From the NCBI GenBank assembly GCA_964447495.1, contig CAYUTF010000039.1:1-27794 (forward strand): a stretch of DNA of 27,794 nucleotides, in the 5' to 3' direction. This document shows positions 1-25,138 of the stretch, one piece after another. This stretch comes from an uncultured archaeon. GTDB lineage: Archaea; Asgardarchaeota; Lokiarchaeia; Sigyniarchaeales; SOKP01. Under the pieces are notes generated by a model. That model saw only the letters and a program-made list of their open reading frames with translations. It made no database searches and was not told where the DNA came from. Every line of letters starts with the position of its first letter. Position 1 is the first letter of the stretch. Made by a program: the position numbers and the translations under genes.

Positions 1-2140
1 CAGTTCCTGTACCTTTATAGAATTTAAAGAAAAATTCATAAAAGTGAAGTCGAATTGTATTGATAAAAACTAATACCCCTTCTAATAGGATCACAACAAT
101 GTTTCCTATTACTAATCCTACTATTTTTACTATGTCAAAAAAGATTCCTTCACCCTGAATTAGCCCGGATAATGCCTGTATAGATATCATTAAAGCGATG
201 TGAGCAAGGGCTAATGCTAATAATCGAATGTATGAAGCCACATTACTTAAAATGGAAAGTGCGGTTTCAAATGTTTCTACTGTACCTTCTCCCATCAGAG
301 CACCATAAGATTCTTTTTTTAAATAAGATACTCCAAATATTTTGCCAAAAGGTTTTAGTATTATTAATAAAATGCCGGGTACTATTACCAACAAAATAGG
401 ATAGGGAAAAGATAACCAAACTGTAAGATTTATACTATATTGGAAAATTAAATATGTCCCGCCTGTTAATAAACAAATTTTCATAAATGAATTAGTAATA
501 GCTAAAAATTTCTTTGATTGTCTTACGTAATTGATAAGTTCAAGTGCCCACCCTAAATTAATGTGTACTACTCCGATGAAAAGAGCAAATTTAAATACGA
601 TTTGAATATTTTGAAGTGGATTATAAATATTAATTGGACCTAAGAATGGAATATAGAAAAAAATTGGTTGTAAAGGAATGCCAAAGAATTCTTCGTTACC
701 AAAAAATTCACCATAAAATAATCCCCCAAGAGCTGCACCTATTCCACAATAGAATACTATCCAGCTGAATTTACCAATATTTTTTTTTCTAAAAATGATA
801 CCTCCAATAATACCTGCTATCATTAAACAAAAACCATGACCAATATCTCCAAACATTAATCCAAAAATAAAAGGAAAAGTAAACGCTAAAAATGGTGTTG
901 GATCGATTTCAGAATAGGACGGTATACCATACATTTTGGTAATCAATTCAAAAGGTCTGATAAACCATGGATTTTTCATAATTGTAGGAGCCTTTGCTCT
1001 AAAATCTTGCTGTTTTATCTCTTCTTCAAATTCTTCTTTTGCTATTTTAGAATCTGCTTGTTTGATTTCCTTTAGAGCTTTATCTTTTTCAGATTTAGGT
1101 TCTACTTGTTCCAATCCTTTCATTTCATGAAACCTAGGGATATCGATTATATCTAAGATAATATTATCTTTAAAAGTTTTGAATAATAGTTGTTTTACAT
1201 CTTCTCTTTTCCATGAAGGTATGTAAAATTTAAATGTTAGTCGATCGGGAGAAATTTTTTCAAATTGTCGTTCTGCCCAGTGGTATTCTTCGATATTTTG
1301 CACAACTTCATTTATAGCAGCAAATTTGTATAAGTTTAAATTTCTTAATCTGCTTCTTTCATTCTGGTATTTTGATAAAGTAGTAGAAATTATATCAATT
1401 TCATCGTTTATTCGTGTAAAGTTAATTGCTTCTGGAGTTAAATACTTCTTTAAAATTTGGACTTCTTCAGCATGAATAAGATTTATTCTTTCTTTTAAAT
1501 CATCTTCCAAATTTGTTGGATAAAAAATACAAAAAGTAATACGATCTTCTACTTTATACACATTTGGAAATAATTCGTCAGTTTGGTGGACATTTGGAAA
1601 GCTTGTAAATTTAAAAAGAGCATTAAAATTTTCGATATTCTTTTTAAAAGTTGTAAATACTTTAAAAGTTATATTTTTTAATTCTGATAAACTTTCTCTC
1701 GTCAAATTAAATTGCTCTAAAAAGGTATAACTGGATTTAATTATCTGTATATTCTCTATTTCAATCTTTGCTTTTGCGATATATCTATCTAATTCATTAA
1801 TTCGATTTATATAAAAATTAATCTCCTCTAGTGATTTATTTACCAATTCAGGTAAATTGTTTGCTACAAATTCAACTTTCTCATCAGGTCCCACTTTCTT
1901 TAGTTCTTGGAAATCACTTTCAGTAATATTGAGTTTATTTAACAATGAATCTAAATTTTGACGTAAATTTTTAATTTTGCCAAAAAAGGGATCTTTTTCT
2001 TCTGGAGTTTTATCTGAACCTTTCTTATCTTTGGTTTTTATATGAACATTTTTCATATTTGAAAGTGTATTTAAAAGTTGATCCTTGTAATCATCACCTA
2101 TGCTAATTTCGAATAAACTCATTTGAACTTTTTTTGTCAT
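1..2140 (-). CDS. atpI: A/V-type ATPase subunit I (a), partial; last few C-terminal codons lie beyond the left edge
   Basis: Not in the ORF track; start and several segments translated by hand. ATG at 2140 with AGGAG upstream (MTKKVQMSLFEISIG...). Contains APTIMKNPWFIRPFELITKMYGIPSYSEIDPTPFLAFTFPFIFGLMFGDIGHG, VASYIRLLALALAH (essential Arg) and IRLHFYEFFFKFYKGTG at the window edge, in the same frame as the ATG. Confidence 0.96.
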   Translation of the reverse strand, partial: MTKKVQMSLFEISIGDDYKDQLLNTLSNMKNVHIKTKDKKGSDKTPEEKDPFFGKIKNLRQNLDSLLNKLNITESDFQELKKVGPDEKVEFVANNLPELVNKSLEEINFYINRINELDRYIAKAKIEIENIQIIKSSYTFLEQFNLTRESLSELKNITFKVFTTFKKNIENFNALFKFTSFPNVHQTDELFPNVYKVEDRITFCIFYPTNLEDDLKERINLIHAEEVQILKKYLTPEAINFTRINDEIDIISTTLSKYQNERSRLRNLNLYKFAAINEVVQNIEEYHWAERQFEKISPDRLTFKFYIPSWKREDVKQLLFKTFKDNIILDIIDIPRFHEMKGLEQVEPKSEKDKALKEIKQADSKIAKEEFEEEIKQQDFRAKAPTIMKNPWFIRPFELITKMYGIPSYSEIDPTPFLAFTFPFIFGLMFGDIGHGFCLMIAGIIGGIIFRKKNIGKFSWIVFYCGIGAALGGLFYGEFFGNEEFFGIPLQPIFFYIPFLGPINIYNPLQNIQIVFKFALFIGVVHINLGWALELINYVRQSKKFLAITNSFMKICLLTGGTYLIFQYSINLTVWLSFPYPILLVIVPGILLIILKPFGKIFGVSYLKKESYGALMGEGTVETFETALSILSNVASYIRLLALALAHIALMISIQALSGLIQGEGIFFDIVKIVGLVIGNIVVILLEGVLVFINTIRLHFYEFFFKFYKGTGT

Positions 2141-2161: not shown

Positions 2162-2812
2162 TTAATTTCTCTTCTTTTCGATTAAATCTTTAGTTTTTTT
2201 TAATCTAACAAAATTTTCTCGATCCAATTCTTCTAAAATTCCTTTAATTTTTTTAATATCCAATGAGAGAGAAGGTATAATTTGATTTTTCAATCCCGTG
2301 ATTCTTCGGTTTAATTTTTTAAAATTAATCACTAATAATAAAAATAAATCTTCAAATTCTGCGAAACTAATCATTAACTGAAAATATTCTTCTAATAAAG
2401 GCATTAACTCATCAATGAAATGACTCGTATTTTCAAATGAATATGCAGGAAGCCTTCCTGTTCGATTTAAGTCATATTGTATCTCATGGAACGTAATCCC
2501 AATATTTTTAGCATATGTGATATTAACTGTCGGTCGATATTGGATTTTACTTAAACTACTAATTAAAACTAAATCCCTCTTTCCCATTTCTTTATAAGCC
2601 TCATTCAAATAAACTAAAACCTTTTTAAACATCTTCAAAAATTGCATTAGTTTATCTTGATAAACAATCCCATTAGATTTAATTAATGAATTTAATTGTT
2701 CACGTTTAAATTCTAAAAATCTTGCTCCTTTTTCAGCAATATCTAACTTTTTCTTTAAATTGATTAAATTTGTTTTTGTAGGTTTTATTTCTCTAAAACT
2801 TAAGATAAACAC
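2162..2812 (-). CDS. atpD: A/V-type ATPase subunit D (central stalk)
   Basis: N-terminal IKPTKTNLINLKKKL...GARFLEFKREQL and C-terminal KKLNRRITGLKNQIIP...LEELDRENFVRLKK, in operon context. The exact start is uncertain because the GTG lies inside an AGGTG SD-like sequence. Confidence 0.95.
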   Translation of the reverse strand: MFILSFREIKPTKTNLINLKKKLDIAEKGARFLEFKREQLNSLIKSNGIVYQDKLMQFLKMFKKVLVYLNEAYKEMGKRDLVLISSLSKIQYRPTVNITYAKNIGITFHEIQYDLNRTGRLPAYSFENTSHFIDELMPLLEEYFQLMISFAEFEDLFLLLVINFKKLNRRITGLKNQIIPSLSLDIKKIKGILEELDRENFVRLKKTKDLIEKKRN

Positions 2813-4201
2813 CTATTGGGTATAAAATTTTTCAATAAATTCTTGATGAATTCTAAATAATTGATTTTTTGATAAATTTGAAAGCACTTTCCATGCAATA
2901 GTAAATGTATCAATAAAAGTTCTGTTTTCATTAGTTCCTTGATCTAAAAATTTCCTTTCAAATTCGTCCCCAAAAGTTAATAATTCTTTTTGATCATCAT
3001 TTAAACCATCCTCTCCAACAACAGAGAGGATGTCTCGAACTTCAAGAGCGTCAGAGTAGGAAGCTAATAATTGAGAACTAAGGTCCGCATGGTCTTCTCT
3101 AGTAGTGTCCTTTCCAATCGAATCTTTCATTAATCTTGAAATTGATGCTAATACTTCGAATGGAGGGTAAATTCCTTTTTTATTTAAATCACGGTTTAAG
3201 ACTAACTGTCCTTCAGTTATATATCCAGTTGTATCAGGGATGGGATGGGAAATATCATCATTCGGCATAGTTAAAATAGGTAATTGAGTAATGGATCCAT
3301 TCTTTCCTTTTAGTTTGCCAGTTCGTTCATAAATAGATGCTAAGTCAGAATATAAATATCCGGGGTAACCTTTTCTGCTGGGAATTTCTTCTTTCACAGA
3401 ACTTAATTCTCTTAATGCTTCAGCATAATTAGTCATGTCAATTAGTACTACGAGTACATGCATTCCTTTTTCGAATGCAAAATATTCTGCTGTTGTTAAA
3501 GCTACACGGGGAATAATTAATCTTTCCATGATTGGATCAGAAGCGAAATTAATAAAAGAAATGATATTTTGAATATTTCCACTCTCTCTAAAAGTATTTA
3601 AAAAATTAATTGCCTCATCTTCTATAATTCCGATACCACAAAAAATTATTAAAAAGGGTTCCTCCGTTAAGACCTTAGCTTGAGTTACTATTTGAGCCGC
3701 CAATTTATTATGAGGTAATCCCTGGGCACTGAAAATAGGTAATTTTTGACCTCTAATTAGAGTAAAAAGACCATCTATTACTGAGACCCCCGTTTGAATG
3801 ACCTCTGATGGATATTCCCTAGCATAAGGATTAATTGGTGCTCCATAAATATCTAATTCATGATCACCAATCACTTCTGTTTTTGAAATTTCTTTTGTAA
3901 AAATATTAAATGGCTTTCCAAAGGAATTGAAGGTTCCTCCAAACATATCATTATCAGAAATTCTCACTTTAAAAGAATCTTCAGTAAAAAATATTCTTGA
4001 ATTCTCACGAGATAATCCTTTTGTATCTTCAAAAACTTCAATAACGATTATTTCTTTATCCATTTTTACAACTTGACCTGTTCTAGTGATGCCATCTTCA
4101 GATTGAATTTTCACTATTTCCCCATATTGTACGTTATGTTGATTTTCCAAAAAAATTAATGGTCCTATTATTTTTTGTATATTTCTATAAGTTACACTCA
4201 T
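2813..4201 (-). CDS. atpB: A/V-type ATPase subunit B (non-catalytic)
   Basis: [67 protein letters not shown] overlap with atpA. Confidence 0.98.
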
Positions 4202-6036
4202 TTCCTTTTGCGCCCACCATATATTAATTTTCTGGATTGAATCTCCCTAAGTAATTCCTTTTTTATCTTTTCTATTTTCTCAAATTGATCATTAGGGATG
4301 GTTTGACTAACTCTTCTAATATCGTCTATTACTTCAAGAGATTTAACGTCTTCGAGCATATATCCTTGAGTAAGCAAATCTAACCCTTGATGGTACAGTA
4401 GTAAAATTAATTTAATATGCCCCAACAATTTAGTAAAGCTGGTAAATTTATCAATATTATCAAAAGCGTTTTGTATAAGGAAGCTTTCTCTTATTAATTT
4501 CCCAATAAAAATTATGAATTGTTGATCATCAGGTAAATTTTCTTCACCAACTAATTGGATAATATTTTTTAGCTCATTTTCCTTTGAAAGAATAGAGTTA
4601 ATCTCAGCTCTGCATTGATACCAATCAAGGTCAATTTCAGGCCAGGCAATATCTCTTTCAACCCACCATTGGGAGACGTATTCTGTATAATTTGAATAAG
4701 AACTTAACCAATTTATTGCAGGATAATGTTTTGAATAGGCAAGATTTGCATCTAAAGCCCAAAATGCTTGCACAAATCGTTTTGTAGTGGCAGTTACTGG
4801 TTCACTAAAATCGCCAGCAGGTGGAGAGACTGAACCAACCACCGTTAATGACCCAAACCTTTTTTTTTCTGAGTCATTCGTTCCTAATATTTCTACTTTT
4901 CCCGCCCTTTCATAAAAACTTGAAAGTTTGGAGGGCAAGTACGCAGGATATCCTTCCTCAGCTGGCATTTCTTCTAATAATCCGGAAATTTCTCTTAATG
5001 ATTCCGCCCATCGCGATGTGCTATCCGCTAGCACTGCGATATCATAACCCATATCTCTATAATATTCAGCAATAGTGACTCCTGAAAAGATACTTGCTTC
5101 ACGTGCCGAAACGGGCATATTTGAAGTGTTAGCTATAAGTACTAATCTTTCTATTAGAGGACGCCCACTTTTAGGATCTATTAGTTTTGAAAACTCTTTT
5201 AACACATCAGCAATTTCATTCCCTCTTTCTCCACATCCAACAAAAATAATTATATCAGCATTACACCATTTTGCTAAAGATTGCTGAATCACGGTTTTAC
5301 CTGTTCCAAAACCACCTGGTACAGTCACAGTTCCTCCTTTAACTATAGGAAAAAGTAAATCAATTATCCTTATTCCAGTTATTAAAGGTTCCTCTGATAA
5401 AATTCTCTCTTTGTAAGGTCGACTTCTCGTTATTGGCCATTTTTGTATCATGTTTAATGAAACTTCGTTTCCATTTTTTCTCAGTCTATATATTTCTTCC
5501 TCAATTGTATAATCTCCCTCATCAACAATAAAGGATAATACTCCTGAATAATTTATTGGAACTAATATCCTATGTTCTATTAAAGAAGTTTCTTGAATTG
5601 TACCAATTATGTCTCCCGGTTCGACTTTATCTCCTTTCTTTTTTCGGGGAATTAAATGCCATTTAATAGTTCTAGAGAGTGAGGGTATATCGGTACCACG
5701 TTGTATAAAAGAACTTTCAATCTTTTTATAAATTAAATTCAAAGGTCTTTGAATCCCATCAAACACACTTGTTAGAAGTCCCGGTGCTAATTCCATTGAT
5801 AAGGGCTCATTGAGACTAATAACTTCCTGATTTAATTTTAAGTTATTAGTATTTTCATAACATTGAACAATTACATGATTACTGTAAATTTGAATGACTT
5901 CCCCTAAAATATTCTGTTCTGAGACTTTAATTAAATCATGTAATTTGATTTGGTCTTCTAGACCTTCTATAATAATTAATGATCCATTTATCGCTGTTAT
6001 GATGCCTTTTTGAAAGGAATCATCCGATTTGTTCAT
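4198..6036 (-). CDS. atpA: A/V-type ATPase subunit A (catalytic), no intein
   Basis: Walker [67 protein letters not shown]. Confidence 0.98.
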
Positions 6037-6759: not shown

Positions 6760-7080
6760 CTATTCTATAATTTTTCTAAGGGACTTAAAAATTTCTTTAA
6801 CAAAAACGGTTTTATCTTCTTGTTTTGATGTAAAAATATTCGGGAGGAAAAAAACAAAAGGTTTCTTGTCGCTTAATTTGTGTTCTATTAGATTTTGAAT
6901 ATCAACATCTAACAAATCCATAGCTATAATTATCATCCCTATTGAAGTATCTTTCTTTAATCTATCGAATTCATTTAAAAATTCTTCTGGTTTATTAAGA
7001 ATTGTTCCATCGATCCCCAATAAACCCATCATCAAAATGATTTCCTCTTCACCAATTGCATAAATTTTTTGTTCAGGCAC
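6760..7080 (-). CDS. atpF: A/V-type ATPase subunit F
   Basis: KIYAIGEEEIILMMGLLGIDG, IGMIII, PFVFFLP; 106 aa; operon context. Confidence 0.92.
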   Translation of the reverse strand: MPEQKIYAIGEEEIILMMGLLGIDGTILNKPEEFLNEFDRLKKDTSIGMIIIAMDLLDVDIQNLIEHKLSDKKPFVFFLPNIFTSKQEDKTVFVKEIFKSLRKIIE

Positions 7081-7390
7081 TAAAATCTAATCCTAATTTT
7101 CTAATAATATCGTTAATTATTTTTAACCTATTTTTATTATAATCTTGTTCCCATTTTTCTAAAATCCTTGTTAAATTCTCCTTGAATTGCATAATTTCCT
7201 TATCTGCATCATTACTAACGGAATTTAAAGCTTTTTTAACCAATTTTTGTTTATGTTGCAACGATTCTTCGATTAATTTTTCATTTTCGACTTTTAATTC
7301 TTCAATTTCGTTTAAATTCTGATTCTTAGCCTCTTCTAATAATTCTTCATAGATTTTTTCTAGTTCTTTAGCCCAATCAAATATTTTCAT
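7073..7390 (-). CDS. atpH: Probable A/V-type ATPase subunit H/G (peripheral stalk coiled coil)
   Basis: 105 aa E/K-rich all-helical protein overlapping both neighbours; it is the only subunit otherwise unaccounted for. Confidence 0.75.
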   Translation of the reverse strand: MKIFDWAKELEKIYEELLEEAKNQNLNEIEELKVENEKLIEESLQHKQKLVKKALNSVSNDADKEIMQFKENLTRILEKWEQDYNKNRLKIINDIIRKLGLDFSA

Positions 7391-8420
7391 AATTATCTTT
7401 TAATTCCTCATATTTTTCATTAATAATTCTAATCACATTAGGCATTATATTAAATTTAATTTCTTTTTCTTTTTTTATTATCAATTCTAATATTCTGTAG
7501 ATTGTTAAATACTCAAAATCATCAGTTTTTAATTGAAATTTCTTAAAATAATAATTTTGATAAATTCCCTCAAAAGACCATCTTAAATGTCTTTTGTTTA
7601 TTGTAATTGGTATAAATGCTTCTTTTAATTCTCTTGAGGATTTTAAGAACCTTTCTAAATTAGTACTGAAATCTTCAATATTATCTATGTTTAATAAAAT
7701 CTGTATTTTATATTGATCCAAAAATAAATACTCATTAACTAAAAGTTGAGATGTTAGAGTTTTATCAAACTTGTTATAAATCGCACGGGATAACATTCTT
7801 AAGTTGTATACTTCAATTGAATAATCAATAAATAATGCTATCATATCTCTTTCTTTTCTATCATATAATGGTTTTGTTAATATTAGATTTTCGTAATATA
7901 ATTTATCTAAAAACGCCTCTAATACAAAAATTTCATTTGTATTTTTAAAGTAAAGGACGCCCTCTCGAATTGCCTTGTTATATCTAGTTTTCTTCATATA
8001 TAGTTGGATTTCATCCAAATTCGAGATTTCTAATAAATCTTGAATAAAGTTAGAATGCTCTAAATATTCTTCTACTAAAAAATTAATTCTTTTGGACTTT
8101 TCTGCCTTAGTCATGCCTACTATAGACCCAAGAATTATTTGTTTAATGTTAGAGATTTCATACTTTAATAGAATGGATCTTAAAAAAAGCCTCATATTCT
8201 CTGGAGAAAAATACATTATCTTACCAATTAATTTAATTAGTACATGAAACAGAGCTTGTTCGATTTCTGCTATAGTATAATCTGAAACTTTAATTTCTGG
8301 ATAATATGGAAGTATATATTCAATAAAATCAACAATAGTGTTGAAAGTTTTTAATTTTGGTAAGAATTCTTCTTCGATAATTAATCTCTTTAAATACTCT
8401 ATCTTTATATAAGTATACAC
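7377..8420 (-). CDS. atpC: A/V-type ATPase subunit C (d/AC39 family)
   Basis: 347 aa with KYEISNIKQII, LEAFLDKLYY and IEVYNLRMLSR repeats typical of subunit C. The start may lie a few codons upstream (frame open to TGA 8448-8450). Confidence 0.88.
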   Translation of the reverse strand: MYTYIKIEYLKRLIIEEEFLPKLKTFNTIVDFIEYILPYYPEIKVSDYTIAEIEQALFHVLIKLIGKIMYFSPENMRLFLRSILLKYEISNIKQIILGSIVGMTKAEKSKRINFLVEEYLEHSNFIQDLLEISNLDEIQLYMKKTRYNKAIREGVLYFKNTNEIFVLEAFLDKLYYENLILTKPLYDRKERDMIALFIDYSIEVYNLRMLSRAIYNKFDKTLTSQLLVNEYLFLDQYKIQILLNIDNIEDFSTNLERFLKSSRELKEAFIPITINKRHLRWSFEGIYQNYYFKKFQLKTDDFEYLTIYRILELIIKKEKEIKFNIMPNVIRIINEKYEELKDNYENI

Positions 8421-8507: not shown

Positions 8508-8876
8508 TTATGCTACTGGGGGGGAAGGAATTTTAGTCCACAAGAGAATACCAACAATTAAACCGTAAACTGCTAACGCTTCCGCTAATGCAACCACTAA
8601 GAACGCTTTAAAGAATGTTTCTTCCCTCTCAGCAAGAGAAGAGATTGCTGCCGTCCCTACTGTTTTTATTGCCAATGCACTTCCTAACACTGAAGCACCA
8701 ACAGAAACTGCGGCGGATATAGCTAAGGCAGCTGAAGTACCAGAATTATAATAATCTAATGTAGTAGCTTGCGCTGCCACAAATGATACTAAACCATTCA
8801 CAGAGAAAAATACGGTAAAGACTAAGATTAGTTGAAAAAATCCAAGTAATATATAAAATTTCTTTTTTCCATTCAT
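8508..8876 (-). CDS. atpK: A/V-type ATPase proteolipid subunit K (c): single hairpin plus N-terminal hydrophobic/signal segment
   Basis: GASVLGSALAIKTVGTAAISSLAERE and FLVVALAEALAVYGL with the ion-binding Glu. Confidence 0.95.
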   Translation of the reverse strand: MNGKKKFYILLGFFQLILVFTVFFSVNGLVSFVAAQATTLDYYNSGTSAALAISAAVSVGASVLGSALAIKTVGTAAISSLAEREETFFKAFLVVALAEALAVYGLIVGILLWTKIPSPPVA

Positions 8877-14816: not shown

Positions 14817-14867
14817 AATATAAAACACCTAAGTACTGATTCTTAATAGTCATAGATCAAATACATT

Positions 14868-15003: not shown

Positions 15004-16257
15004 TTAAAGACTGTAATTTTTATCAAGACGTAAGATTAAATTTTTTACAATTATCAAAGTTTCTAATAATTCATGCGAATTTACTTTATTTGGTTGATCT
15101 TGCTTAGTATGAGAATATTTCGTAGCGCCAAGTGTTGAAAAATCTATAGTTTCTAATTTAAGCAAATGAAATGGTACTGAATCAGTATGAGCTCCGGATA
15201 ATAATGTGTGACCCTTGATCTTAATATGTTCTTCTTCAGCTATTTTACTTATTTTAGAAAGAAGTAGAGGGGAACTCCTTTTTCTAGGTAGAATCCCATA
15301 AGATTTAATGTATTCGACTCTATTCTCATTACTTTTACATGAAACCATATCAAAATTAATCTGGTATAGTTTATTATTTAAAAACTCTTCTTTATAGGTA
15401 TCAACAAAAATTCTCGAGCCCATTGTACCTATTTCTTCTGCTGAAAATTGGCAAAACCAGATGTTATAATGATTAAGGGGGTTATTTTTAAAAATTGAAC
15501 TCAATTCAAAAATCAAAGCCATTCCAGATGCATTATCTAAAGAACCAAGAGATTTATTTCCTGTTTTAATAAAAAATACCATAAAAATTGAAAAAATGGT
15601 TAAAATAGATGTTATTATTGTAGAAATTTCAAGAACTAACCATATAGATTTAAAAATATTGAGATATAAATCAATTAGAAAAGAAGTAATCAATATTAGA
15701 AAAAGAGTTATTCCAATCTCCCATATTGAAATAAAAATAACACGCCATTTCGTCTTAAAAGTTTGTGATTTGGAGTCTAAATGTGCAGATATAATTAGGT
15801 TTGCAGAATTATTAGCGGGAATATTTCTTGCAGGAATTTTAACGAATATATTTGTAGCTGAAATTAATGATCCAAAATGTTTTTCCCAAAAACCTCTATA
15901 TTCAGGATGTCTCAATACTTTTAACATTGAGAAAAACACTATTGCAATTATACATACAGTTATAATTACAAAAAAAGGGTAAAGATATTTAACTAATAGC
16001 AAAATGAGTATTATGAATAAATTCATCAATCCAATTATTTTTACAAGCTCTTCAGAATAAAATGTCGAAAAATTGAAAGTTTGGGTTATAATTTGATCTT
16101 TAGTAAAACCAAGGTCTTCAAATGATTGAATTGTCAGTTTAACGGCCTTTTTTTCTCCCGTTGTGCCTGCCAGACGAGGAAAACTAAATTTTTTCACATA
16201 ATCATATAATTTCGATACACTATCATCATTCTTTTCTTGAAAATTATTTTCCTTCAT
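15004..16257 (-). CDS. Membrane-embedded M28-family zinc peptidase/hydrolase
   Basis: FPRLAGTTGE, ISAHLDS, GSLDNASG, FSAEEIGTMGS, INFDMV, HTDSVPF, YSHTKQD; two hydrophobic hairpins; AGGAG SD. Confidence 0.9.
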   Translation of the reverse strand: MKENNFQEKNDDSVSKLYDYVKKFSFPRLAGTTGEKKAVKLTIQSFEDLGFTKDQIITQTFNFSTFYSEELVKIIGLMNLFIILILLLVKYLYPFFVIITVCIIAIVFFSMLKVLRHPEYRGFWEKHFGSLISATNIFVKIPARNIPANNSANLIISAHLDSKSQTFKTKWRVIFISIWEIGITLFLILITSFLIDLYLNIFKSIWLVLEISTIITSILTIFSIFMVFFIKTGNKSLGSLDNASGMALIFELSSIFKNNPLNHYNIWFCQFSAEEIGTMGSRIFVDTYKEEFLNNKLYQINFDMVSCKSNENRVEYIKSYGILPRKRSSPLLLSKISKIAEEEHIKIKGHTLLSGAHTDSVPFHLLKLETIDFSTLGATKYSHTKQDQPNKVNSHELLETLIIVKNLILRLDKNYSL

Positions 16258-16288: not shown

Positions 16289-18028
16289 TTATATAAATAT
16301 GTGAATAATTGAGCCAATGCCTAAAATACTTGAAATTGCTGAACCAAAAAATACTTGAATAATAATAAAAGAACTAATTAATACAGAGCTAAATTTTCTT
16401 GTTTTTTCATATATTAATGAATTCATGATGATAACCGCTAGAAATATAAGGTAAGTAACGAGTACAGAATTGATTATTAACAATTGGAAAGAAAAGCTCA
16501 TTAAAATTGCAACATGAATAATCGCCATAGACGAAGTTAGCATCATTTTATTTGAATCGGATTTAATGAAATGTAGGCGTGGATAAATAATTTTTCTGTA
16601 AAATAATTCTATTGCTAAATAAAAGGGATATATCGAATATGTAAGTATGAAATCAATTAAATTTACTGGAGAAAAAAAGGCAAATGGGTATAAAAGTGAA
16701 AATGAGATATACAGACTTAAAAATATTAAAACTGAAAAGAAAGAAAACAAAATCACATTTTTATGAAATTGTGACTTTATTTCATCTTTTAAGTGCAATT
16801 TTATATAAGTTATTACTTTTTGACTTCTTTCTTCAGCTATGATTACATTTTTAAGCAAAAAAGCACAAAAATATATGAAAATTATTACAAGTGGTACTAT
16901 AATTATTCCAATTATACCCATAAGAATATAAAATATTAACCATAAGCTAATAAATCCACCATAATACAAAGAAATCTTTATTAATTCTTTTAGAATTATT
17001 TTTCTTTTTTTATCTCCAATTTGCAAATTAAATTTTAGATCTTCTTTATCCCTTGTAGCATCGATCGAAAAATATTTTAAACTATTTTTTATTAATCCTA
17101 GAGTTACAAGAAACAATCCGACTAATCCTAAGAATAACAAAACGAAAGAAGCCATGTATGTAAGTTGAATAGAGCCATTAAGTGTAGTTGAATTAAAAAA
17201 TTTTGATTCTATCCACTCAATTGAGTTTATTAAAACAGTATTGGATAATAAGAGATGGGGCCCTCCTAACAGATTTTCTGTTATATTAATGACTGGACAA
17301 TTCGTAAGTTTTTGAGCTACTAAGGCATTTTCCTTATATGGAACAGTAGAATCATAAATAGAGTGTATAACTAAAAGATTAGATGGATTTAAGCTATTAA
17401 TTATTTTTGAAGGAATATATTTCATGAAAGGATCAGTTTCACTTATATAAAATTCTTTTGCAGAAAAATTTACTAATCCTGCCCATGTGACTGTTACCTT
17501 GAAACGATTATCTAATGCTCCATTCATTAACACAACCATTCCCCCCAAAGAATGCCCTATTAGTCCGATTTGAGAGGAATTTATTCTATCATATACAGGT
17601 AAAGTTTCTATTGTATCTAATAATTTTGAACAATCTTGAGCTATAGCTGGCACGATAGTTCTATTTCTATATGATTGATAATTAATATCTAAAATATGAC
17701 CCGTGCTTTCACCATTACCACGATAATCTATTGAAGCAACATAAAATCCTCTCTTGGTAAATTCATTAGGTATTCTTATATCAAGATCTTTTTGACTTCC
17801 TAAACCATGAGCATAAATAATTAAGGGCGCTTTATTTTGGAAGGTTATTTGTTTGCTAGGATAATATAAATTTGCATAAATTTGAGCATCCGTCGATTCG
17901 AAACTAATTCTCTGATAATAAATATATGATTCAAATCTAGTTGAATAAAGTAAAACAAGAACAGTTATATAGAAAACAACTGCCAACAAAAGAAAATAAT
18001 GATGTTTTTCTTTAAGAAACCACTTCAT
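16289..18028 (-). CDS. Alpha/beta-hydrolase with N-terminal TM anchor and C-terminal multi-TM domain
   Basis: YAHGLGS, SIDYRGNGES, GHSLGG nucleophile, HSIYDSTVP, GPH; about 8-9 C-terminal hydrophobic helices. Confidence 0.88.
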   Translation of the reverse strand: MKWFLKEKHHYFLLLAVVFYITVLVLLYSTRFESYIYYQRISFESTDAQIYANLYYPSKQITFQNKAPLIIYAHGLGSQKDLDIRIPNEFTKRGFYVASIDYRGNGESTGHILDINYQSYRNRTIVPAIAQDCSKLLDTIETLPVYDRINSSQIGLIGHSLGGMVVLMNGALDNRFKVTVTWAGLVNFSAKEFYISETDPFMKYIPSKIINSLNPSNLLVIHSIYDSTVPYKENALVAQKLTNCPVINITENLLGGPHLLLSNTVLINSIEWIESKFFNSTTLNGSIQLTYMASFVLLFLGLVGLFLVTLGLIKNSLKYFSIDATRDKEDLKFNLQIGDKKRKIILKELIKISLYYGGFISLWLIFYILMGIIGIIIVPLVIIFIYFCAFLLKNVIIAEERSQKVITYIKLHLKDEIKSQFHKNVILFSFFSVLIFLSLYISFSLLYPFAFFSPVNLIDFILTYSIYPFYLAIELFYRKIIYPRLHFIKSDSNKMMLTSSMAIIHVAILMSFSFQLLIINSVLVTYLIFLAVIIMNSLIYEKTRKFSSVLISSFIIIQVFFGSAISSILGIGSIIHIFI

Positions 18029-18215: not shown

Positions 18216-18265
18216 TATAATCCATTTAATTTCTTTATTTATTTAAATTTTTAGAACTTTATTGT

Positions 18266-20395
18266 TTACAAAATTATTAATCCTCCAAAATTTAGGAAGA
18301 TTGGAGCAAAAGCAATTGATACGGTATTTATTACTTTAACTAATATATGAAGAGATGGACCTGCTGTGTCTTTTAATGGATCACCAAAAGTATCCCCAAC
18401 AATTGAGGCCGAGTGTGCAACTGAACCTTTTCCTCCCATAAGACCTCCTTCAATAGCTTTTTTAGCGTTATCGAGGGCTCCACCTCCCGTATTTAACACA
18501 AATCCAAGAATAATTCCTGAGATGGTCCCAGAGATTAAAAAAGCGGCTAATGCTACGGGTCCAAATAAAAATCCTAATATTATCGGAGTTAATGTAGGGA
18601 GTAATGCAGGTATTATCATTTGCTTTAAGGCAACTTTTGTTCCTATATCAATACATTTTGCATAATCAGGTAAGGTCTTTCCTTCTAATATTCCAGGATC
18701 TTCTTTAAATTGTCGTTGTATCTCTTTAATCATACCATGTGCAGCCACCCCTGCGGATCTAATTGCTAATGCTGAAAATAAGTAAGGAATTACCGATCCT
18801 ATTAATAATGCGCATAAAACAATAGGAAGATAGATATTAACATCGAGCGTCTTAACTTCTTCTAAATAGGCTTCAAATAGTATAATAGCGGATAAGGCAG
18901 CACATGTGATACCAAAACCCTTTGCTAATGCTTTAGTTGTATTCCCAACTGCATCAAGCTTATCTAAATTATTTCGTACTTGTTCTCCTTGATGTGACAT
19001 CTCTGCAATTCCTGCTGCATTATCCGATACTGGTCCAAATCCATCGAAAGCTAAAATAATGGTTGTGATCGACAATAAGCCCATTGTTGTGACAGTTATT
19101 CCAAATACACCGCCTAAATACGGTTCAATAAACAAACTGGGTGGATTGCTCAGATTCCATGTATTGGCAAAAAGCTCACCAAGAAAAAAACTAATAATGA
19201 TTCCTGCAACAAATGAGATTACTGGAATAATTGGTGATTCTAAACCTAAAGAAAAACCACTTATCACATTGGTAGCCGCACCAGTTTCTGAACTTTTTAT
19301 GATACGTTTTACAGGTTTATATCTTGAGGATGTGTAATAATCGACGATAAAATAAGTTGATAGTCCTAATCCTATTCCTAAAATAGAACAGATGAATAAG
19401 AATAACCAACCTGTTTGAAAGCTAATAATTGTTAATATTAGAAAAGAAATAACATTAAAAATCGCTGTATAGATAAGACTTCTTTCGAAAGCAGCGATAG
19501 GAGATTTATCCTTTTTTTTAATATTAACAAAATGTCCTCCAAAAATGCCTGCGATATTACCTATAGCTCTTGAAATTAAGGAAAAAATAATGAATAAGGG
19601 ATTTTGTGTAGCAACACTTAATGTAACTCCTATTATCATTGCCGCAATATTATTTGCTGATGAAGATTCATAGAGATCTGCCCCTCTACCAGCGCAGTCT
19701 CCGACATTATCCCCCACATTATCTGCTATAGCTGCAGGATTCCGTATATCATCCTCAGGTAAGCCATGTTCTAATTTTCCGACTAAGTCCGCTCCTATAT
19801 CTGCTCCTTTTGTAAATATTCCTCCCCCCAATTGAGCGAATAACGCAGAGAATGAGGCTCCGAAAGCAAATCCAACAATATTTTGAGTGTTGAAATTAAA
19901 TATGATATATAAAATACTAATTCCTAATAAGGAAATTGAAATCACAGAAACCCCTATAACCATTCCGGCATTAAATCCTATCTTTAAGGCACTATTCAAA
20001 TCAGTTTTACAAGCTTGGGTTACCTTTACATTTGTTAAAGTGGATGCAACCATACTAATATAACTCGCGATTAATGATGTAATGGCTCCGATTAGAAAGG
20101 AAATCGCCAAGATTAGATTAACAAATATAAGAATAACAAAAATAATGGCTAATACAATTGAAATTGTTTTAAATTGTCTTTTTAAATATGTATTAGAACC
20201 CAATTTTATTAAATCATGGACTTTCTTCATATCTTCAGTACCGTCATCTAATCTTCTTAATTTCTTCATTATCCAAAAGATATAAGCCAATCCAACGATA
20301 GAAAGGACAATAACTAACAAAAAGAATATCCAATAGACGGAAGCAACAAAAGTACTAACTTTATTAAAATCAAAATCCTGAAACATTTTCTTCAA
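18266..20395 (-). CDS. hppA: Membrane H+-translocating pyrophosphatase, K+-independent type
   Basis: GGGIFTKGADIGADLVGK, EDDIRNPAAIADNVGDNVGDCAG, GPVSDNAAGIAEM, GNTTKA (Lys marks K+-independence), DNAKK, GDPLKDTAGPS. Start is TTG 20395 or ATG 20386. Confidence 0.97.
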   Translation of the reverse strand: MKKMFQDFDFNKVSTFVASVYWIFFLLVIVLSIVGLAYIFWIMKKLRRLDDGTEDMKKVHDLIKLGSNTYLKRQFKTISIVLAIIFVILIFVNLILAISFLIGAITSLIASYISMVASTLTNVKVTQACKTDLNSALKIGFNAGMVIGVSVISISLLGISILYIIFNFNTQNIVGFAFGASFSALFAQLGGGIFTKGADIGADLVGKLEHGLPEDDIRNPAAIADNVGDNVGDCAGRGADLYESSSANNIAAMIIGVTLSVATQNPLFIIFSLISRAIGNIAGIFGGHFVNIKKKDKSPIAAFERSLIYTAIFNVISFLILTIISFQTGWLFLFICSILGIGLGLSTYFIVDYYTSSRYKPVKRIIKSSETGAATNVISGFSLGLESPIIPVISFVAGIIISFFLGELFANTWNLSNPPSLFIEPYLGGVFGITVTTMGLLSITTIILAFDGFGPVSDNAAGIAEMSHQGEQVRNNLDKLDAVGNTTKALAKGFGITCAALSAIILFEAYLEEVKTLDVNIYLPIVLCALLIGSVIPYLFSALAIRSAGVAAHGMIKEIQRQFKEDPGILEGKTLPDYAKCIDIGTKVALKQMIIPALLPTLTPIILGFLFGPVALAAFLISGTISGIILGFVLNTGGGALDNAKKAIEGGLMGGKGSVAHSASIVGDTFGDPLKDTAGPSLHILVKVINTVSIAFAPIFLNFGGLIIL

Positions 20396-20620
20396 ATAAT
20401 AAATAATTTTATATTTAAAGTCAGAAATTTCCCTTTTTAAAGATATGGATAAAATTTTATAAGATATTTATAACTTGAAAATTAGACTTTTATTTAAACG
20501 CTAAATATTTAAGAAAGAAAAAAGAAAAATTTTAGTTCTATACATATCAGATTCAAAATTATATAAGTAAAGTTCTATAAATTGCTTCTTGAATACCCTC
20601 TTTTAGCATTAATGTTTTTT

Positions 20621-20637
20621 AAGGGATATACTTATTT
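20621..20637 (+). promoter_or_regulatory. AAGG-N5-MCTTATTT motif, copy 3 (upstream of glgP, in the hppA/glgP divergent region)
   Basis: AAGG-GATAT-A-CTTATTT(A), 60 nt upstream of the proposed ATT start. Confidence 0.55.
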
Positions 20638-20696
20638 ACTTAGAATTGATATTAATTTTCATTATTAAAGAAATATTAGGAAGGTGTTAGTTTAAG

Positions 20697-22406
20697 ATTA
20701 CTATTGAAGAGAAGAATCAAGAAATTGCATATTTTTCTATGGAAATTGCGTTAGAAAGCAGTCTTCCAATTTATTCGGGAGGATTAGGTATTTTAGCGGG
20801 AGATGCACTCCGCTCTGCAGCCGATATGGGATTACCCATGGTTGCTGTTACCTTAACTTATGATGCCGGTTATTTCTATCAACAAATTGGTCCTGATGGA
20901 AGCCAAATCGAAAAAGAAATGGAATGGACTTTTAGTGATGATTTTGAAAAACTCGATCAAGTAGTAATCCTTGAGTTACAAGATAAATTACTTAAAGTGG
21001 AAGCTTGGAAGTATGAATTAGTAGGGAGAAATGGACATATCATCCCGGTAATCTTATTAGACACTGATCTTGCTGAGAATGAACCATGGCAAAGAAAGTT
21101 AACTCATGTCTTATATGATGCCAAACCATTTGATCGAATTGTCCAAGAAATGGTTCTTGGTATTTGTGGTTGTAGAATGTTAAAAAAATTAGGTTTTGAT
21201 AATATAAAGACTTATCATCTTAATGAAGGGCATGCGGCATTTCTTATTTTTGAACTCTTAGAAAAATATAAAAATTTAGAGGAGGTTAAGAAACATTGCG
21301 TATTTACGACACATACTCCTGTCAGAGCAGGTCTTGAAGAATTTGATTATAATTTAGTGGATGATGTTTTTAGAAAACGCCTCCCAGAGAAGATTCATGA
21401 TTTTGCTGGAAAAGATAGGCTCAATATGACAATTCTTGCTTTAAATGCAAGTGGATTTGTGAATGGGGTTTCAAAAAAACATGCTGAAATCTCTAATAGA
21501 ATGTTCCCAAATTATAATATTAAACAAATAACAAACGGAATTCATCCTGGATATTGGCTATCACCCTATATGAGGGATTTTTTAAATGAAGAATTTTCAA
21601 GAGTCTGGCACCATAATTTTCACCTTTTCGATAATGCTTTAAATTTAGATAGCTATGAATTATGGAGAGCACATAATAAAGCTAAGAGCAGATTAATTGA
21701 ATATGAAAAATCGCATTCATGGATTTTGTTTGAGGAAAATTTGTTGACTATTGGATTCGGTCGCAGAATAGCTGAATATAAGCGACCGCTTTTGATTTTC
21801 ACTGATATAGAACGATTAGCTAAGACAATTAAGAAAAAAGCACAAATTATCTATACAGGAAAAGCTCACCCTGCAGATATACTCTCTAAATCTTACATAA
21901 AAAAGATTAGTGAGTATAGTACTTATTTATGGAATTCTTATGATATAGGACTTGTATTTTTAGAAAATTATGAAATTAATTTAGCAAAATTGTTGGTTAG
22001 TGGAGTAGATTTGTGGCTTAACAATCCTAGAAGATATTTAGAAGCAAGTGGGACAAGTGGAATGAAAGCTGCTATTAATGGAGTTCTTAATTTATCCACA
22101 TTAGATGGATGGTGGATTGAAGGTTATTATATGTCCGATAAAAAGGCAGGATGGGCGATAGGTCCTGAACCAACTGACCCAAAAGCCGAAAAATTAGATG
22201 ACTCTTTTGATGCTGATGATTTATATAATAAACTGGACAAAGAAATTATTCCATTATTTTACAAAAAACAAGATGAATGGCGAGAAAGAATGAAATATGC
22301 AATAAAATTAGGGACTTACTTCAATACGAATCGTATGATGGAAGAATATGCTTTGAAGTCTTATCAATTAGTAAAACAACCAATATGGAAAAGTAAGGTA
22401 ATCTAA
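20697..22406 (+). CDS. glgP: Alpha-glucan (glycogen/maltodextrin) phosphorylase, short GT35 type; probable ATT start at 20697 (track start is ATG 20739)
   Basis: IAYFSMEIALES..IYSGGLGILAGD, HLNEGHAA, FTTHTP, NGVSKKH, ITNGIH, RRIAEYKR, GKAHP, EASGTSGMK (PLP Lys), LDGWWIEG. The conserved IAYFS lies upstream of the first ATG; AGGAAGGTG SD at 20678-20686. Confidence 0.95.
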   Translation: MTIEEKNQEIAYFSMEIALESSLPIYSGGLGILAGDALRSAADMGLPMVAVTLTYDAGYFYQQIGPDGSQIEKEMEWTFSDDFEKLDQVVILELQDKLLKVEAWKYELVGRNGHIIPVILLDTDLAENEPWQRKLTHVLYDAKPFDRIVQEMVLGICGCRMLKKLGFDNIKTYHLNEGHAAFLIFELLEKYKNLEEVKKHCVFTTHTPVRAGLEEFDYNLVDDVFRKRLPEKIHDFAGKDRLNMTILALNASGFVNGVSKKHAEISNRMFPNYNIKQITNGIHPGYWLSPYMRDFLNEEFSRVWHHNFHLFDNALNLDSYELWRAHNKAKSRLIEYEKSHSWILFEENLLTIGFGRRIAEYKRPLLIFTDIERLAKTIKKKAQIIYTGKAHPADILSKSYIKKISEYSTYLWNSYDIGLVFLENYEINLAKLLVSGVDLWLNNPRRYLEASGTSGMKAAINGVLNLSTLDGWWIEGYYMSDKKAGWAIGPEPTDPKAEKLDDSFDADDLYNKLDKEIIPLFYKKQDEWRERMKYAIKLGTYFNTNRMMEEYALKSYQLVKQPIWKSKVI

Positions 22407-22472
22407 TTAAAAATACATTCTTGCTAAAAAAATAAAGATAATTTAAAAGAGTATAAAATCTTGCCTAAATTA

Positions 22473-22530
22473 AAGGAGGATCTATCTTTCCTTACGAATT
22501 ATTAAAATTAAAATCCCTTTTTTTTATTTT
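22473..22530 (+). terminator. Possible terminator after glgP (imperfect hairpin followed by a T-tract)
   Basis: AAGGAGGAT-CT-ATCTTTCCTT followed by CCCTTTTTTTTATTTT. Confidence 0.3.
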
Positions 22531-22642
22531 AATTTATAAATTTTATATAAAATATTTAAAAAGCTAACCTTCTGACCATAATTTGTATTATTTAAATTCC
22601 TGTTCAATTTTAAAATAAATTTATAATGATTTAAAATCTAAA

Positions 22643-25138
22643 ATGAGAAAAACCATGTCTAGTAATATTTTAACTTCAGAACAAGCAAAAACGATGACTA
22701 TAAATGATATATATTCACAACTTTCAACCAACGACAAAGGTTTGAGTGAGAACCAAGCCAAAGAGAGATTAGAGAAATATGGCTATAATGAAATTCCGGA
22801 AAAAAAGGTTAGTCCAATTCTAAAACTGCTCAAAAATTTTTGGGGACCTATTCCTTGGATGATTGAAATTGCTGCGATATTATCTATAATTATACAACCT
22901 CCACGCTGGGACGATTTCGCTATCATAGTTGCAATGCTATTAATAAATAGTATTGTTCGATTTTGGGAAGAAAATAAAGCAGATAACGCAATTGCATTGT
23001 TAAAAGAAAAGTTAGCTTTGAAAGCTGAAGTTCATCGAGAGGGAAAATGGCTTGAAATTGAATCTAGAGAATTAGTTCCGGGAGATATCGTACATCTTAG
23101 ATTAGGAGATATTATCCCTGCAGACATAAAACTTATTAATGGAGACTATCTCACTGTTGATGAATCGGTTTTAACTGGTGAATCCTTACCAGTTGATAAA
23201 AAGATTTCCGATATGGGCTATGAAGGGGCAATAATTCGTCAGGGCGAAATGGATGGAGTTGTAGTAGGAACTGCATTAAATACATTTTTCGGAAAAACAA
23301 CGCAATTAGTTGAACAAGCAAAAACAAAAAGTCATTTTCAAAAAGCAATTGTTAAAATTGGTAATTATCTTATCATTATAGCGGTGGTACTTGTCGCAAT
23401 AGTATTTATTGTTGGATTCATAAGAGACTTATTACCAGGCTCTCTGGTAATAAAGGAAAAAGAGAGTATTTACGGTTTACTCCAATTTACTCTAGTTTTA
23501 ATGATAGCCGCGATCCCAGTGGCATTACCCGCAGTTATGATGGTGTCAATGGCAGTAGGTGCAATGGAATTAGCCAAAAAGAAAGCAATTGTGAGAAAAT
23601 TACTTTCAATTGAAGAAGCTGCTAGTGTAGACGTTCTCTGCTGTGATAAAACGGGTACTTTAACGAAAAATGAAATTTCTATTGCTAAAGTTATACCATT
23701 TGGTAATTATTCGGAGAACGATATAATTCTCTATGGAGGTTTGGCATCAAAAGAGGAGAGTAAGGACCCTATAGATGACGCTTTCTTTGCTAAAATAAAA
23801 GAAGATTCAGAAATCAATTCATTATTTTCAAAATATAATCCTATATCTTTCAAACCTTTTGACCCCGTAAAAAAAAGGACAGAAGCAAAGTTAAAAGATA
23901 ATAACGATAAAGATATTCAAGTTTCTAAAGGAGCTCTTCAAGTTATTTTAGGTTTAGTTAAGAAAGATCAAGTTTTAGAAGATAAAGTCAATGATCAAGG
24001 GAAAGAATTTGCATCTTTAGGATTTAGAGCGCTTGGAGTAGCTAAGTCTGACAATCAAGAACCATGGGAGTATATAGGAATCGTTGCATTACATGATCCC
24101 CCAAGAGAAGATTCATTTGAGACAATAAAAACAGCAAAATCTTTGGGAATAAATGTAAAAATGGTAACAGGAGATCATATAGAAATTGCAAAACAAATAG
24201 CAGGAAATCTTGGAATTGGCACTAATATCGTTGTATCTTCAGAAATTATAGGAAAAGAAGATGAAAATACAATAAGTCTAGTTGAGAGCGCAGACGGTTT
24301 CGCTGAAGTTTATCCAGAACATAAATATCATATTGTAGAACTTCTACAAAAAAAGGATCATGTTGTTGGTATGACTGGTGATGGTGTAAATGATGCACCC
24401 GCTTTAAAGAAAGCCGATATTGGATTTGCAGTTTCCAATGCAACGGATGCGGCAAAATCTGCAGCAGATATTGTTTTAACGGATACTGGAATATCAGTAA
24501 TTATTAAAGCCACTACAGAAAGCCGAAAAATCTTTGAGAGAATGAAAAGCTATGCTGTGTATAGAATTGCAGAAACTGTTCGAATTCTTTTCTTTTTAGT
24601 GCTTTCAATTACAATTTTTGCCATTTATCCTATTACGGCTATAATGATCGTAATTTTAGCACTTTTAAACGATTTACCAATAATGACTATTGCTTTTGAT
24701 AAAACAAGAATAGACCCCTATCCAGTTAGGTGGAGAATGCAAAGAGTTCTCATTTTATCTACTGTTTTAGGTATTACAGGAGTTATTTTTAGTTTTACAA
24801 TCTTTTTAATTGGAAAATTTGTATTTCAACTGAGTTTAGCAGTGTTACAAACATTTATTTTCTTAAAATTAGCCGTCGCAGGACACATGACAATATATCT
24901 TACTCGTACAGAGGAGGATAACTTCTGGAAACGCCCCCTCCCTTCTAAAATCCTCTTTATTACATGTGAGACAACTCAACTAATAGCAACTATTTTCGCT
25001 GCTACAGGAATCTTCATGCCGGCAATAGGTTGGGGCTTAGCAGGCTTTATTTGGCTATTCGCTCTTGGTATGTTTTTCCTCACGAACTTTATAAAAGTTG
25101 CGGTGATCAAATTTTTAAGAAGAAAAGATAAAAAATAA
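22643..25138 (+). CDS. P3A-type plasma-membrane H+-efflux P-type ATPase (PMA1/AHA/MJ1226 family)
   Basis: FWGPIPWMIE, LTGES, IPVALPAV, CCDKTGTLT, PFDPVKKRT, DPPRED, MVTGDH, FAEVYPEHKY, TGDGVNDAPALKKAD, M5 YRIAETVR, M6 LLND proton acceptor. Confidence 0.96.
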   Translation: MRKTMSSNILTSEQAKTMTINDIYSQLSTNDKGLSENQAKERLEKYGYNEIPEKKVSPILKLLKNFWGPIPWMIEIAAILSIIIQPPRWDDFAIIVAMLLINSIVRFWEENKADNAIALLKEKLALKAEVHREGKWLEIESRELVPGDIVHLRLGDIIPADIKLINGDYLTVDESVLTGESLPVDKKISDMGYEGAIIRQGEMDGVVVGTALNTFFGKTTQLVEQAKTKSHFQKAIVKIGNYLIIIAVVLVAIVFIVGFIRDLLPGSLVIKEKESIYGLLQFTLVLMIAAIPVALPAVMMVSMAVGAMELAKKKAIVRKLLSIEEAASVDVLCCDKTGTLTKNEISIAKVIPFGNYSENDIILYGGLASKEESKDPIDDAFFAKIKEDSEINSLFSKYNPISFKPFDPVKKRTEAKLKDNNDKDIQVSKGALQVILGLVKKDQVLEDKVNDQGKEFASLGFRALGVAKSDNQEPWEYIGIVALHDPPREDSFETIKTAKSLGINVKMVTGDHIEIAKQIAGNLGIGTNIVVSSEIIGKEDENTISLVESADGFAEVYPEHKYHIVELLQKKDHVVGMTGDGVNDAPALKKADIGFAVSNATDAAKSAADIVLTDTGISVIIKATTESRKIFERMKSYAVYRIAETVRILFFLVLSITIFAIYPITAIMIVILALLNDLPIMTIAFDKTRIDPYPVRWRMQRVLILSTVLGITGVIFSFTIFLIGKFVFQLSLAVLQTFIFLKLAVAGHMTIYLTRTEEDNFWKRPLPSKILFITCETTQLIATIFAATGIFMPAIGWGLAGFIWLFALGMFFLTNFIKVAVIKFLRRKDKK

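Follow-up and report, generated by a model that had tools for sequence, protein, structure and literature searches.

The window, the whole stretch of DNA analysed here, is 27,794 nucleotides long and constitutes the entire contig C39 (CAYUTF010000039.1) of an assembly from an uncultured Loki-type Asgard archaeon (GCA_964447495.1, hereafter G000; 3.8 Mb, 98.4% complete). It encodes three families of proton pump, a rotary ATPase, a membrane pyrophosphatase (PPase) and a P-type ATPase of the P3A class, which are best read, with fair though far from complete confidence, as two units lying side by side. The first is a housekeeping ATPase operon (unit 1); the second is an accessory stress or starvation module of PPase, alpha-glucan phosphorylase (glgP) and P3A (unit 2) that would export protons. 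By its gene order in relatives, the PPase-glgP-P3A set is a conserved accessory module of Asgard archaea and a new arrangement of known pump families. An Asgard-wide P3A clade would then belong to a conserved gene set that comes and goes as one, together with an H+-PPase of its own and a glucan phosphorylase, and prokaryotic P3A pumps would acquire a concrete context: a single-subunit pump moving 1 H+ per ATP, paired with a pump driven by pyrophosphate (PPi), as a stress-time energiser of the membrane in a fermenting relative of eukaryotes. Two tempting readings are corrected in what follows, namely that the three pumps form one island and that the Asgard P3A is sister to the eukaryotic pump.

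An initial annotation, made from the letters of the window, had placed three proton pumps within 25 kb together with VIT1, DUF47 and two USP genes. All were found where it had put them and are intact, save for subunit I of the rotary enzyme, which is cut by the contig end. It had passed over the genes situated between the pumps, namely the 2-hydroxyacyl-CoA dehydratase set, an M28 peptidase and an alpha/beta hydrolase. Its attribution to an Asgard archaeon also stands, as the closest P3A loci carry Asgard names (Promethearchaeota and Candidatus Thor-, Odin-, Hermod- and Lokiarchaeota). In the comparisons below G000 is the window's own genome, other G numbers are genomes of relatives, L numbers are loci and C numbers are contigs; presence and absence were scored in 42 genomes of the genus, and linkage of ATPase and P3A in 14 P3A-bearing genomes. 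Gene identities, motifs, synteny and joint presence or absence were observed directly in these data.

A conserved PPase-glgP-P3A module

Gene neighbourhoods were compared at 30 Asgard loci having a P3A at least 60% identical to that of the window, with flanks of up to 10 kb. glgP was found at 24 of these, a USP gene at 22, the M28 peptidase at 18 and PPase at 15, with the alpha/beta hydrolase at 11 and a DUF47 paralogue (DUF47b) directly behind PPase at 8; neither VIT1 nor any ATPase subunit occurred in these flanks (0/30 each). Among loci with an upstream flank of 5.5 kb or more, nearly all have PPase (11/12). The usual order is DUF47b(-) PPase(-) / glgP(+) P3A(+) / USP(-) M28(+) hydrolase(-) USP(+), P3A is often duplicated in tandem, and Asgard P3A often occurs in two or three copies. 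Within the genus, P3A and the accessory PPase were each found in 8 of the 42 genomes, with both in 7, P3A alone in 1, PPase alone in 1 and neither in 33. The synteny across related genomes that the initial annotation had proposed as a check thus holds for PPase, glgP and P3A, and only loosely for the rotary ATPase, as described further below.

Adjacency of the three genes through inherited gene order, with no functional coupling, has some points in its favour. The module-bearing genomes all belong to related Asgard lineages, and many of the counts could go back to a single arrangement in an ancestor; each gene has a promoter-like box of its own; and in G067 PPase and P3A lie on separate contigs. 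This explanation is nevertheless considered improbable, as the set stays together through several rearrangements (L030, L031, L033, L034, L041), persists down to 62 - 67% P3A identity (L030, L034, L041), and PPase and P3A are jointly present or jointly absent in 40 of the 42 genus genomes. Conserved TATA-like boxes belonging separately to PPase, glgP and P3A indicate that the three are transcribed as separate units and not as a single operon, and the coupled module that we prefer would be one of separately transcribed genes.

The arrangement was not recovered at the bacterial loci examined. With archaeal-type queries, neither glgP nor USP was found at any of 46 bacterial P3A loci. Two of these loci, both from Bacteroidota, have a 28%-identical PPase 4 - 5 kb away, which was considered as bacterial support for a PPase-P3A link; in L062, the one of the two that was annotated, thyA, folA and genes for a nuclease and a nucleoside transporter intervene, and the proximity was treated as coincidence. 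In a literature search, which did not extend to supplementary gene tables, neither the module nor P3A pumps of Asgard archaea were found described.

The P3A pump and its ancestry

As the initial annotation had proposed, the P3A gene is intact. The protein scores 350.8 bits on the model for Mg-type P3B pumps (cut-off 610.75), and its phosphorylation Asp is residue 335, in CCDKTGTLT. D677, R647 and N102 align with D684, the proton acceptor in transmembrane helix (TM) 6, R655 in TM5 and N106 in TM2 of AHA2 in structure 5ksd, the roles of these residues following in part an excerpt of PMC10654040. Among solved pumps, AHA2 gave 622 bits and Pma1 ~530 bits. A C-terminal autoinhibitory R domain was not found, the protein stopping close to the end of the shortened AHA2 construct that was crystallised, and prokaryotic P3A members are described as typically having no R domain (PMC10654040, excerpt). 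The same excerpt gives P3A pumps a stoichiometry of 1 H+ per ATP and potentials of -100 to -250 mV, and places prokaryotic members mainly in methanogens, with no mention of Asgard archaea in that portion of its text (PMC10654040).

From these residues the pump looks H+-specific. Transport of a substrate different from H+, such as another cation, in a module serving cation instead of proton homeostasis has to be weighed, as the function of prokaryotic P3A pumps is stated not to be established (PMC10654040, excerpt). It is improbable in view of the scores (972 bits on TIGR01647 versus 351 on the P3B model) and the retention of all three AHA2 residues, the TM5 Arg being one that P3B pumps do not have (PMC10654040, excerpt). 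Compared with the plant and fungal pumps (AHA2, Pma1) and the P3A of Methanocaldococcus jannaschii, the window protein is alike in matching TIGR01647 over its full length and in keeping catalytic and transport residues. It is unlike the plant and fungal enzymes in having no autoinhibitory domain, in falling in a clade with sediment bacteria, and in having PPase and glucan phosphorylase as neighbours.

A comparison of P3A with eukaryotic homologues had been suggested in the initial annotation, and a common clade was rejected. A FastTree phylogeny of 208 rows (the window protein, 76 proteins from the loci, and 131 representatives out of 150 in the library, 19 under 740 amino acids being dropped) placed all 36 archaeal P3A rows in one clade with a single Actinomycetota row, beside nine other bacterial rows, with support of 100. 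The four name-checked eukaryotes (Clydonella, Thecamonas, Gefionella, Corymbia) all fell in a clade of 50 representatives elsewhere, beside other bacteria. The same picture was obtained by IQ-TREE with 60 sampled rows, with Shimodaira-Hasegawa-like approximate likelihood ratio (SH-aLRT) support of 100 for both the Asgard and the eukaryote groups, and of 94 and 86 for their bacterial partners. Forcing Asgard and eukaryote P3A into one clade costs 76.8 log-likelihood units in an approximately unbiased (AU) test (p-AU = 0.013), the group for this test having been named after the first tree was seen. On these trees the nearest neighbours of the Asgard P3A are sediment bacteria, and a sister relationship to the eukaryotic pumps is not recovered.

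The accessory PPase, a putative H+ pump

The membrane PPase of the window is of the Lys type, as initially annotated. The Lys of its GNTTKA motif aligns with the Lys of 8b37, the K+-insensitive H+ pump of Pyrobaculum, and with an Ala in the plant enzyme 4a01. The Pyrobaculum enzyme is also its best solved relative (422 bits), with the TM6 Glu at the equal position. To our knowledge, all characterised Lys-type PPases are H+ pumps, and the window protein looks to be a K+-independent H+ pump as well. A K+-insensitive H+ membrane PPase is noted for Lokiarchaeum in an excerpt of PMC11210485, and an excerpt of a survey of five Asgard proteomes reports rotary ATPases and membrane PPases and lists Ca- and Cu-type P-ATPases, P3A being unmentioned in that portion (PMC7997004).

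Two membrane PPases are carried by G000. The copy on C116 is the core type found across the genus, and the window copy is 38% identical to it. Relatives of the window copy comprise ~59 protein clusters at least 66% identical, every organism label among them being Asgard, and the next are at most 51% identical. Relative to K+-independent H+-PPases such as 8b37, the enzyme is thus alike in its Lys motif, TM6 Glu position and best solved match, and unlike in having Ala in place of Thr near that motif, in being an accessory second copy, and in belonging to a clade that is Asgard-only down to 66% identity. Taken with the bacterial affinity of P3A, the module appears to have been put together within Asgard archaea from parts of differing affinities. 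As a separate observation, one accessory PPase copy (G067:C57:16803-18929) and one P3A paralogue (G049:C2:11598-14042) each have a single in-frame TAA and are possible pseudogenes.

The rotary ATPase operon

Unit 1 occupies the minus strand in the order K, C/d, H/G-like, F, E, A, B, D, I, and several neighbouring genes overlap by a few bases, as is typical of one operon. Seven subunits were assigned by Pfam, subunit E by fold, and H by position together with a weak match. The 226-amino-acid atpE product had no match in Pfam, NCBIfam or PDB sequence searches. Its AlphaFold (AF2) model, built from four orthologues with a predicted local distance difference test (pLDDT) score of 72, has V/A-ATPase subunit E chains as top Foldseek matches (E = 1.7e-5), the Pyrococcus E subunit among them, and by its modelled fold the gene is identified as subunit E. 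The 105-amino-acid gene had no PDB sequence match.

The initial annotation had described a K subunit without the Na+ signature, and this was borne out. The ligand motif of Na+ c-subunits comprises a Gln in helix 1 and a Ser or Thr beside the Glu. The window protein is a single hairpin with its carboxylate in AEALAVYG, with no Gln in helix 1 and no Ser or Thr ligands, and among solved structures it is closest to eukaryotic H+ c''/c chains (43 - 48 bits), followed by Thermus (32) and the Na+ NtpK of Enterococcus hirae (22.7). It looks to be of H+ type. A hydrophobic N-terminal extension of ~40 residues precedes the two-helix hairpin of this c subunit and resembles a signal peptide or a third helix.

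The A subunit scored 638 bits with Pyrococcus, 570 with Thermus, 555 with Enterococcus hirae and ~525 with eukaryotic V-type enzymes. In a PF00006 profile search of the whole assembly, the matches were atpA and atpB of the window alone; the operon is the genome's sole rotary ATPase, a housekeeping A-type ATPase/ATP synthase. The usual gene order in archaeal A1AO operons is H-I-K-E-C-F-A-B-D. The window operon agrees with these operons in its nine probable subunits, overlapping genes and an A subunit closest to the Pyrococcus A-type, and differs in its order (K-C-H-F-E-A-B-D-I), in E and H subunits too diverged for sequence models, and in that relatives of its genome have an extra lone A paralogue after atpI.

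Two atpA matches per genome in relatives had suggested a tandem second ATPase operon. This was rejected, the second match being the lone A paralogue with a zinc-ribbon gene and no B subunit. In most of the genus a 147-amino-acid zinc-ribbon protein and the A paralogue (59% identity) follow directly after atpI (L094 9604-11899, G017:C3). The paralogue keeps the Walker A motif and has GEPGNE where atpA has GERGNE; it was not found in the G000 assembly, where the corresponding region lies past the contig end. In G034:C65, G046:C83 and G049:C38 the atpA match is split inside one open frame of ~1140 - 1175 amino acids, which suggests an intein in the catalytic subunit.

Relation between the two units

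The ATPase operon recurs as a block with DUF47a, VIT1 (in two copies in relatives) and the 2-hydroxyacyl-CoA dehydratase genes hgdCAB in G009, G017, G042 and G044, and the stretch fetched from G019 has VIT1 and hgdCAB with atpA ~4 kb further on. Both P3A and the accessory PPase are missing from G017 (98% complete) and G019 (91% complete). In 6 of the 14 P3A-bearing genomes, from two genera or more, ATPase and P3A are found on one contig at a distance of ~17 - 26 kb. Measured between atpA and P3A, this distance amounts to 16.6 kb for G000, 26.3 kb for G041, 23.2 kb for G042, 24.9 kb for G043 and 22.7 kb for G044. The sixth genome, G009, has a PPase-glgP pair 13.5 kb beyond the ATPase region and, after it, a 42%-identical P3A-family gene that the contig end truncates, a 76%-identical P3A orthologue being on another contig. 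In G011, G015, G021, G023, G045, G046, G049 and G067 the two are on different contigs, most of them too short to decide the matter; in G023 no atpA was found within 21 kb beyond PPase.

G044 is the only relative with the gap annotated, and there it holds genes for a glutamate-cysteine-ligase-like protein, GGACT, GATase, SPFH, CorA, TFB, two HTH regulators and a small GTPase. At the corresponding place in module-less G017 are hgdB, GATase, a CBS protein, USP and an hgdB paralogue, a pattern that fits one segment having been lost or gained, always at the same place. On the two-unit reading, units 1 and 2 lie close together because gene order was inherited and not because they share an operon, and local rearrangement has made the spacing tighter in the window.

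The initial annotation had tentatively read the 25 kb as a single co-regulated pH and energy-homeostasis island in which rotary ATPase, PPase and P3A act together. Part of this stands, PPase, glgP, P3A and USP being a conserved neighbourhood; the rotary ATPase proved not to be a dedicated member. For such an island speak the shared contigs in G000, G041-G044 and (with its 42%-identical gene) G009, the DUF47 paralogues beside the ATPase and, in relatives, beside PPase, and the USP genes dispersed through the region. The same ATPase block is present, however, in G017 and, over the stretch covered, also in G019, without P3A or accessory PPase, and the operon is the only rotary ATPase of the genome. 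Moreover, the G044 gap is filled by unrelated genes, the operon of G009 is inverted relative to DUF47a-VIT1, the 21 kb past PPase in G023 are without atpA, and the genes lie on different strands with separate promoters. A single island is thereby judged unlikely, though less so than the alternatives considered above for the module itself. The inversion in G009 further indicates that DUF47a goes with VIT1 rather than with atpK.

Proposed function of the module

From the genes of unit 2 we infer an ion specificity, a direction of transport, a stress trigger and a metabolic coupling. Under energy or acid stress, the phosphorylase would free glucose-1-phosphate from stored glucan, using phosphate. 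Fermentation of the released sugar would yield ATP, and biosynthesis would supply PPi. P3A would spend the ATP at 1 H+ per ATP and PPase the PPi, protons being exported by both. Rotary enzymes move several H+ per ATP, and membrane potential and cytoplasmic pH could in this way be held where the rotary enzyme could not hold them. Phosphate from PPi hydrolysis would be returned for phosphorolysis. The glucan phosphorylase and ADP-forming acyl-CoA synthetase named in the initial annotation as ATP sources are both present, the latter as an alpha-like protein whose 295 bits fall below the TIGR02717 cut-off. The window glgP is a second copy, 50% identical to a core copy on C13. Elsewhere in the genome a complex-I/Mbh-like cluster is present on C17 and Rnf, which was looked for, was not found; given the C17 cluster, the organism is not restricted to ATP- or PPi-driven pumps.

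Several observations weigh against a separate proton-exporting stress module. The 17 - 26 kb linkage of ATPase and module in 6 of 14 genomes leaves room for a looser functional tie between the units, and the compared genomes are related, so that the counts are not independent and overstate independence. The companion signature of K+-independent H+-PPases is a Thr three residues after the Lys; the window protein has Ala there (GNTTKALA), and the core paralogue on C116 has the Thr. NCBIfam and public records name the PPase clade "sodium-translocating" or a "K+-stimulated sodium pump" despite its Lys signature, a name that we flag as at odds with that signature. To these may be added the functional status of prokaryotic P3A pumps already mentioned. 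A glycogen synthase search of the genome gave a single weak GT5 match (28.8 bits), and DUF47b, which lies behind PPase in relatives, is absent from the window. In two salt-marsh RNA libraries, short exact-match contigs were found on PPase, glgP and P3A, which is a weak hint compatible with transcription in situ, DNA carry-over being possible. No contigs from these libraries were found over 7795-18466; as the libraries had been picked with the pump stretch and such contigs do not allow genes to be ranked, this gap carries no weight.

A possible internal acidic compartment

A further suggestion of the initial annotation, an internal acidic storage compartment resembling an acidocalcisome and served by ATPase, PPase and VIT1, was not upheld. 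The rotary ATPase, H+-PPase and VIT1-family gene do lie within 12 kb, and the best solved matches of the c and E subunits are eukaryotic V-ATPase chains, though the structure bank consists predominantly of eukaryotic entries. The P3A pumps of eukaryotes sit in the plasma membrane. The genome has only one rotary ATPase (one A/B pair), whose A subunit most resembles archaeal A-type enzymes; VIT1 is found with the ATPase block and not with the accessory PPase; and no match to VTC (PF09359) or PPK1 (PF02503) was found in the genome, PPK2 not being searched. Such a compartment is accordingly very improbable. Plants and protists have the same three families, as V-ATPase, V-PPase and VIT1/CCC1, in vacuoles and acidocalcisomes. 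The window resembles that set in having the three near each other, and differs from it in the single rotary enzyme, in VTC and PPK1 not being found, and in the tie of VIT1 to the ATPase flank. The plant and protist pump trio invoked in the initial annotation holds as a functional analogy and fails as kinship, P3A being nearer to a bacterial than to the eukaryotic clade and the A subunit nearest to archaeal A-types. Equally remote is a eukaryote-style division of labour in some Loki-type Asgard archaea, in which a glucan-fuelled P3A and the H+-PPase would energise the cell membrane, the ATPase with VIT1 and DUF47 would acidify and load an internal store, and the 17 - 26 kb linkage would be functional.

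Flanking genes and gene starts

The features of the window are collected in Table 1. The G+C content is ~24 - 34%, and the composition shows no clear step. No Rfam family and no tRNA were found in the window, and there was no integrase-like family among the scanned open reading frames as a sign of mobile elements, no search for repeats having been made.

Table 1. Genes and conserved intergenic regions of the window by position
Feature	Coordinates	Strand	Assignment or support
atpI (subunit I/a)	2..2140	-	PF01496, 108.6 bits; C-terminal end lost at contig end
atpD	2162..2812	-	PF01813, 108.5 bits
atpB	2813..4201	-	PF00006, 252 bits
atpA, catalytic, archaeal A-type	4198..6036	-	PF00006 and PF16886
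atpE, peripheral stalk subunit E, 226 amino acids	6020..6700	-	Fold match (Foldseek on AlphaFold model)
atpF	6760..7080	-	PF01990, 40.1 bits
H/G-like stalk subunit, 105 amino acids	7073..7390	-	Position and weak V-ATPase_G match, E = 0.02
atpC (subunit C/d)	7377..8420	-	PF01992, 83.2 bits
atpK, c-ring subunit, looks H+ type	8508..8876	-	PF00137
DUF47a (PhoU_div)	8968..9627	-	PF01865, 39.7 bits
VIT1/CCC1-family membrane protein	9843..10625	+	PF01988, 58.9 bits
2-hydroxyacyl-CoA dehydratase set (activator and two D-component genes; hgdCAB)	10875..14277	+	PF01869, 210.9 bits; PF06050, 188 and 134 bits
USP1	14361..14828	-	PF00582, 93.3 bits
M28 peptidase	15004..16257	-	PF04389
Alpha/beta hydrolase	16289..18028	-	Several hydrolase-fold families
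Membrane PPase, Lys-type (GNTTKA), putative H+ pump	18266..20395	-	PF03030, 752.6 bits, profile positions 1-644 of 645
Divergent promoter region	20396..20696		Two separately conserved TATA-like boxes; 14-locus alignment, columns at least 80% conserved
Alpha-glucan phosphorylase (glgP)	20697..22406	+	TIGR02094, 508 bits; probable ATT start, first ATG at 20739
Spacer before P3A	22407..22642		Conserved TATA-like box ~90-100 bases before P3A; 15-locus alignment
P3A-type ATPase, putative H+ pump	22643..25138	+	TIGR01647, 972.1 bits versus cut-off 615.5
USP2	25305..25778	-	PF00582; from first ATG, match begins only at profile position 49
ADP-forming acyl-CoA synthetase, alpha-like subunit	25895..27340	-	TIGR02717, 295 bits, under cut-off 567; PF13607 and PF13380 also match

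DUF47a and VIT1 form a divergent pair that is kept in G009, G017, G042 and G044. DUF47 proteins commonly accompany phosphate permeases. In L088, L091, L092 and L093 a second tandem VIT1 copy is present with 38% identity, and the window is without such a copy. Adjoining the DUF47b-PPase pair in one relative (L092 17594-18148, in G044) is a gene for a small Arf/Rag-like GTPase.

Two genes appear to start at ATT. For glgP, positions 20697-20738 are a conserved stretch in 14 loci that codes for NQEIAYFS ahead of the first ATG; past the in-frame TAG the only candidates are the ATT codons at 20697 and 20703, which follow GGAAGGTG by 10 or 16 bases, and relatives have an ATG near there. The conserved N-terminus of USP2 (YKTILIGIDGSEHS) is likewise encoded upstream of the first ATG, GTG or TTG, and its sole plausible start is an ATT (25776-25778) that lies two codons past a TGA stop and is separated from GGTGA by 6 bases. 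Standard gene callers would shorten USP2 to 110 amino acids.

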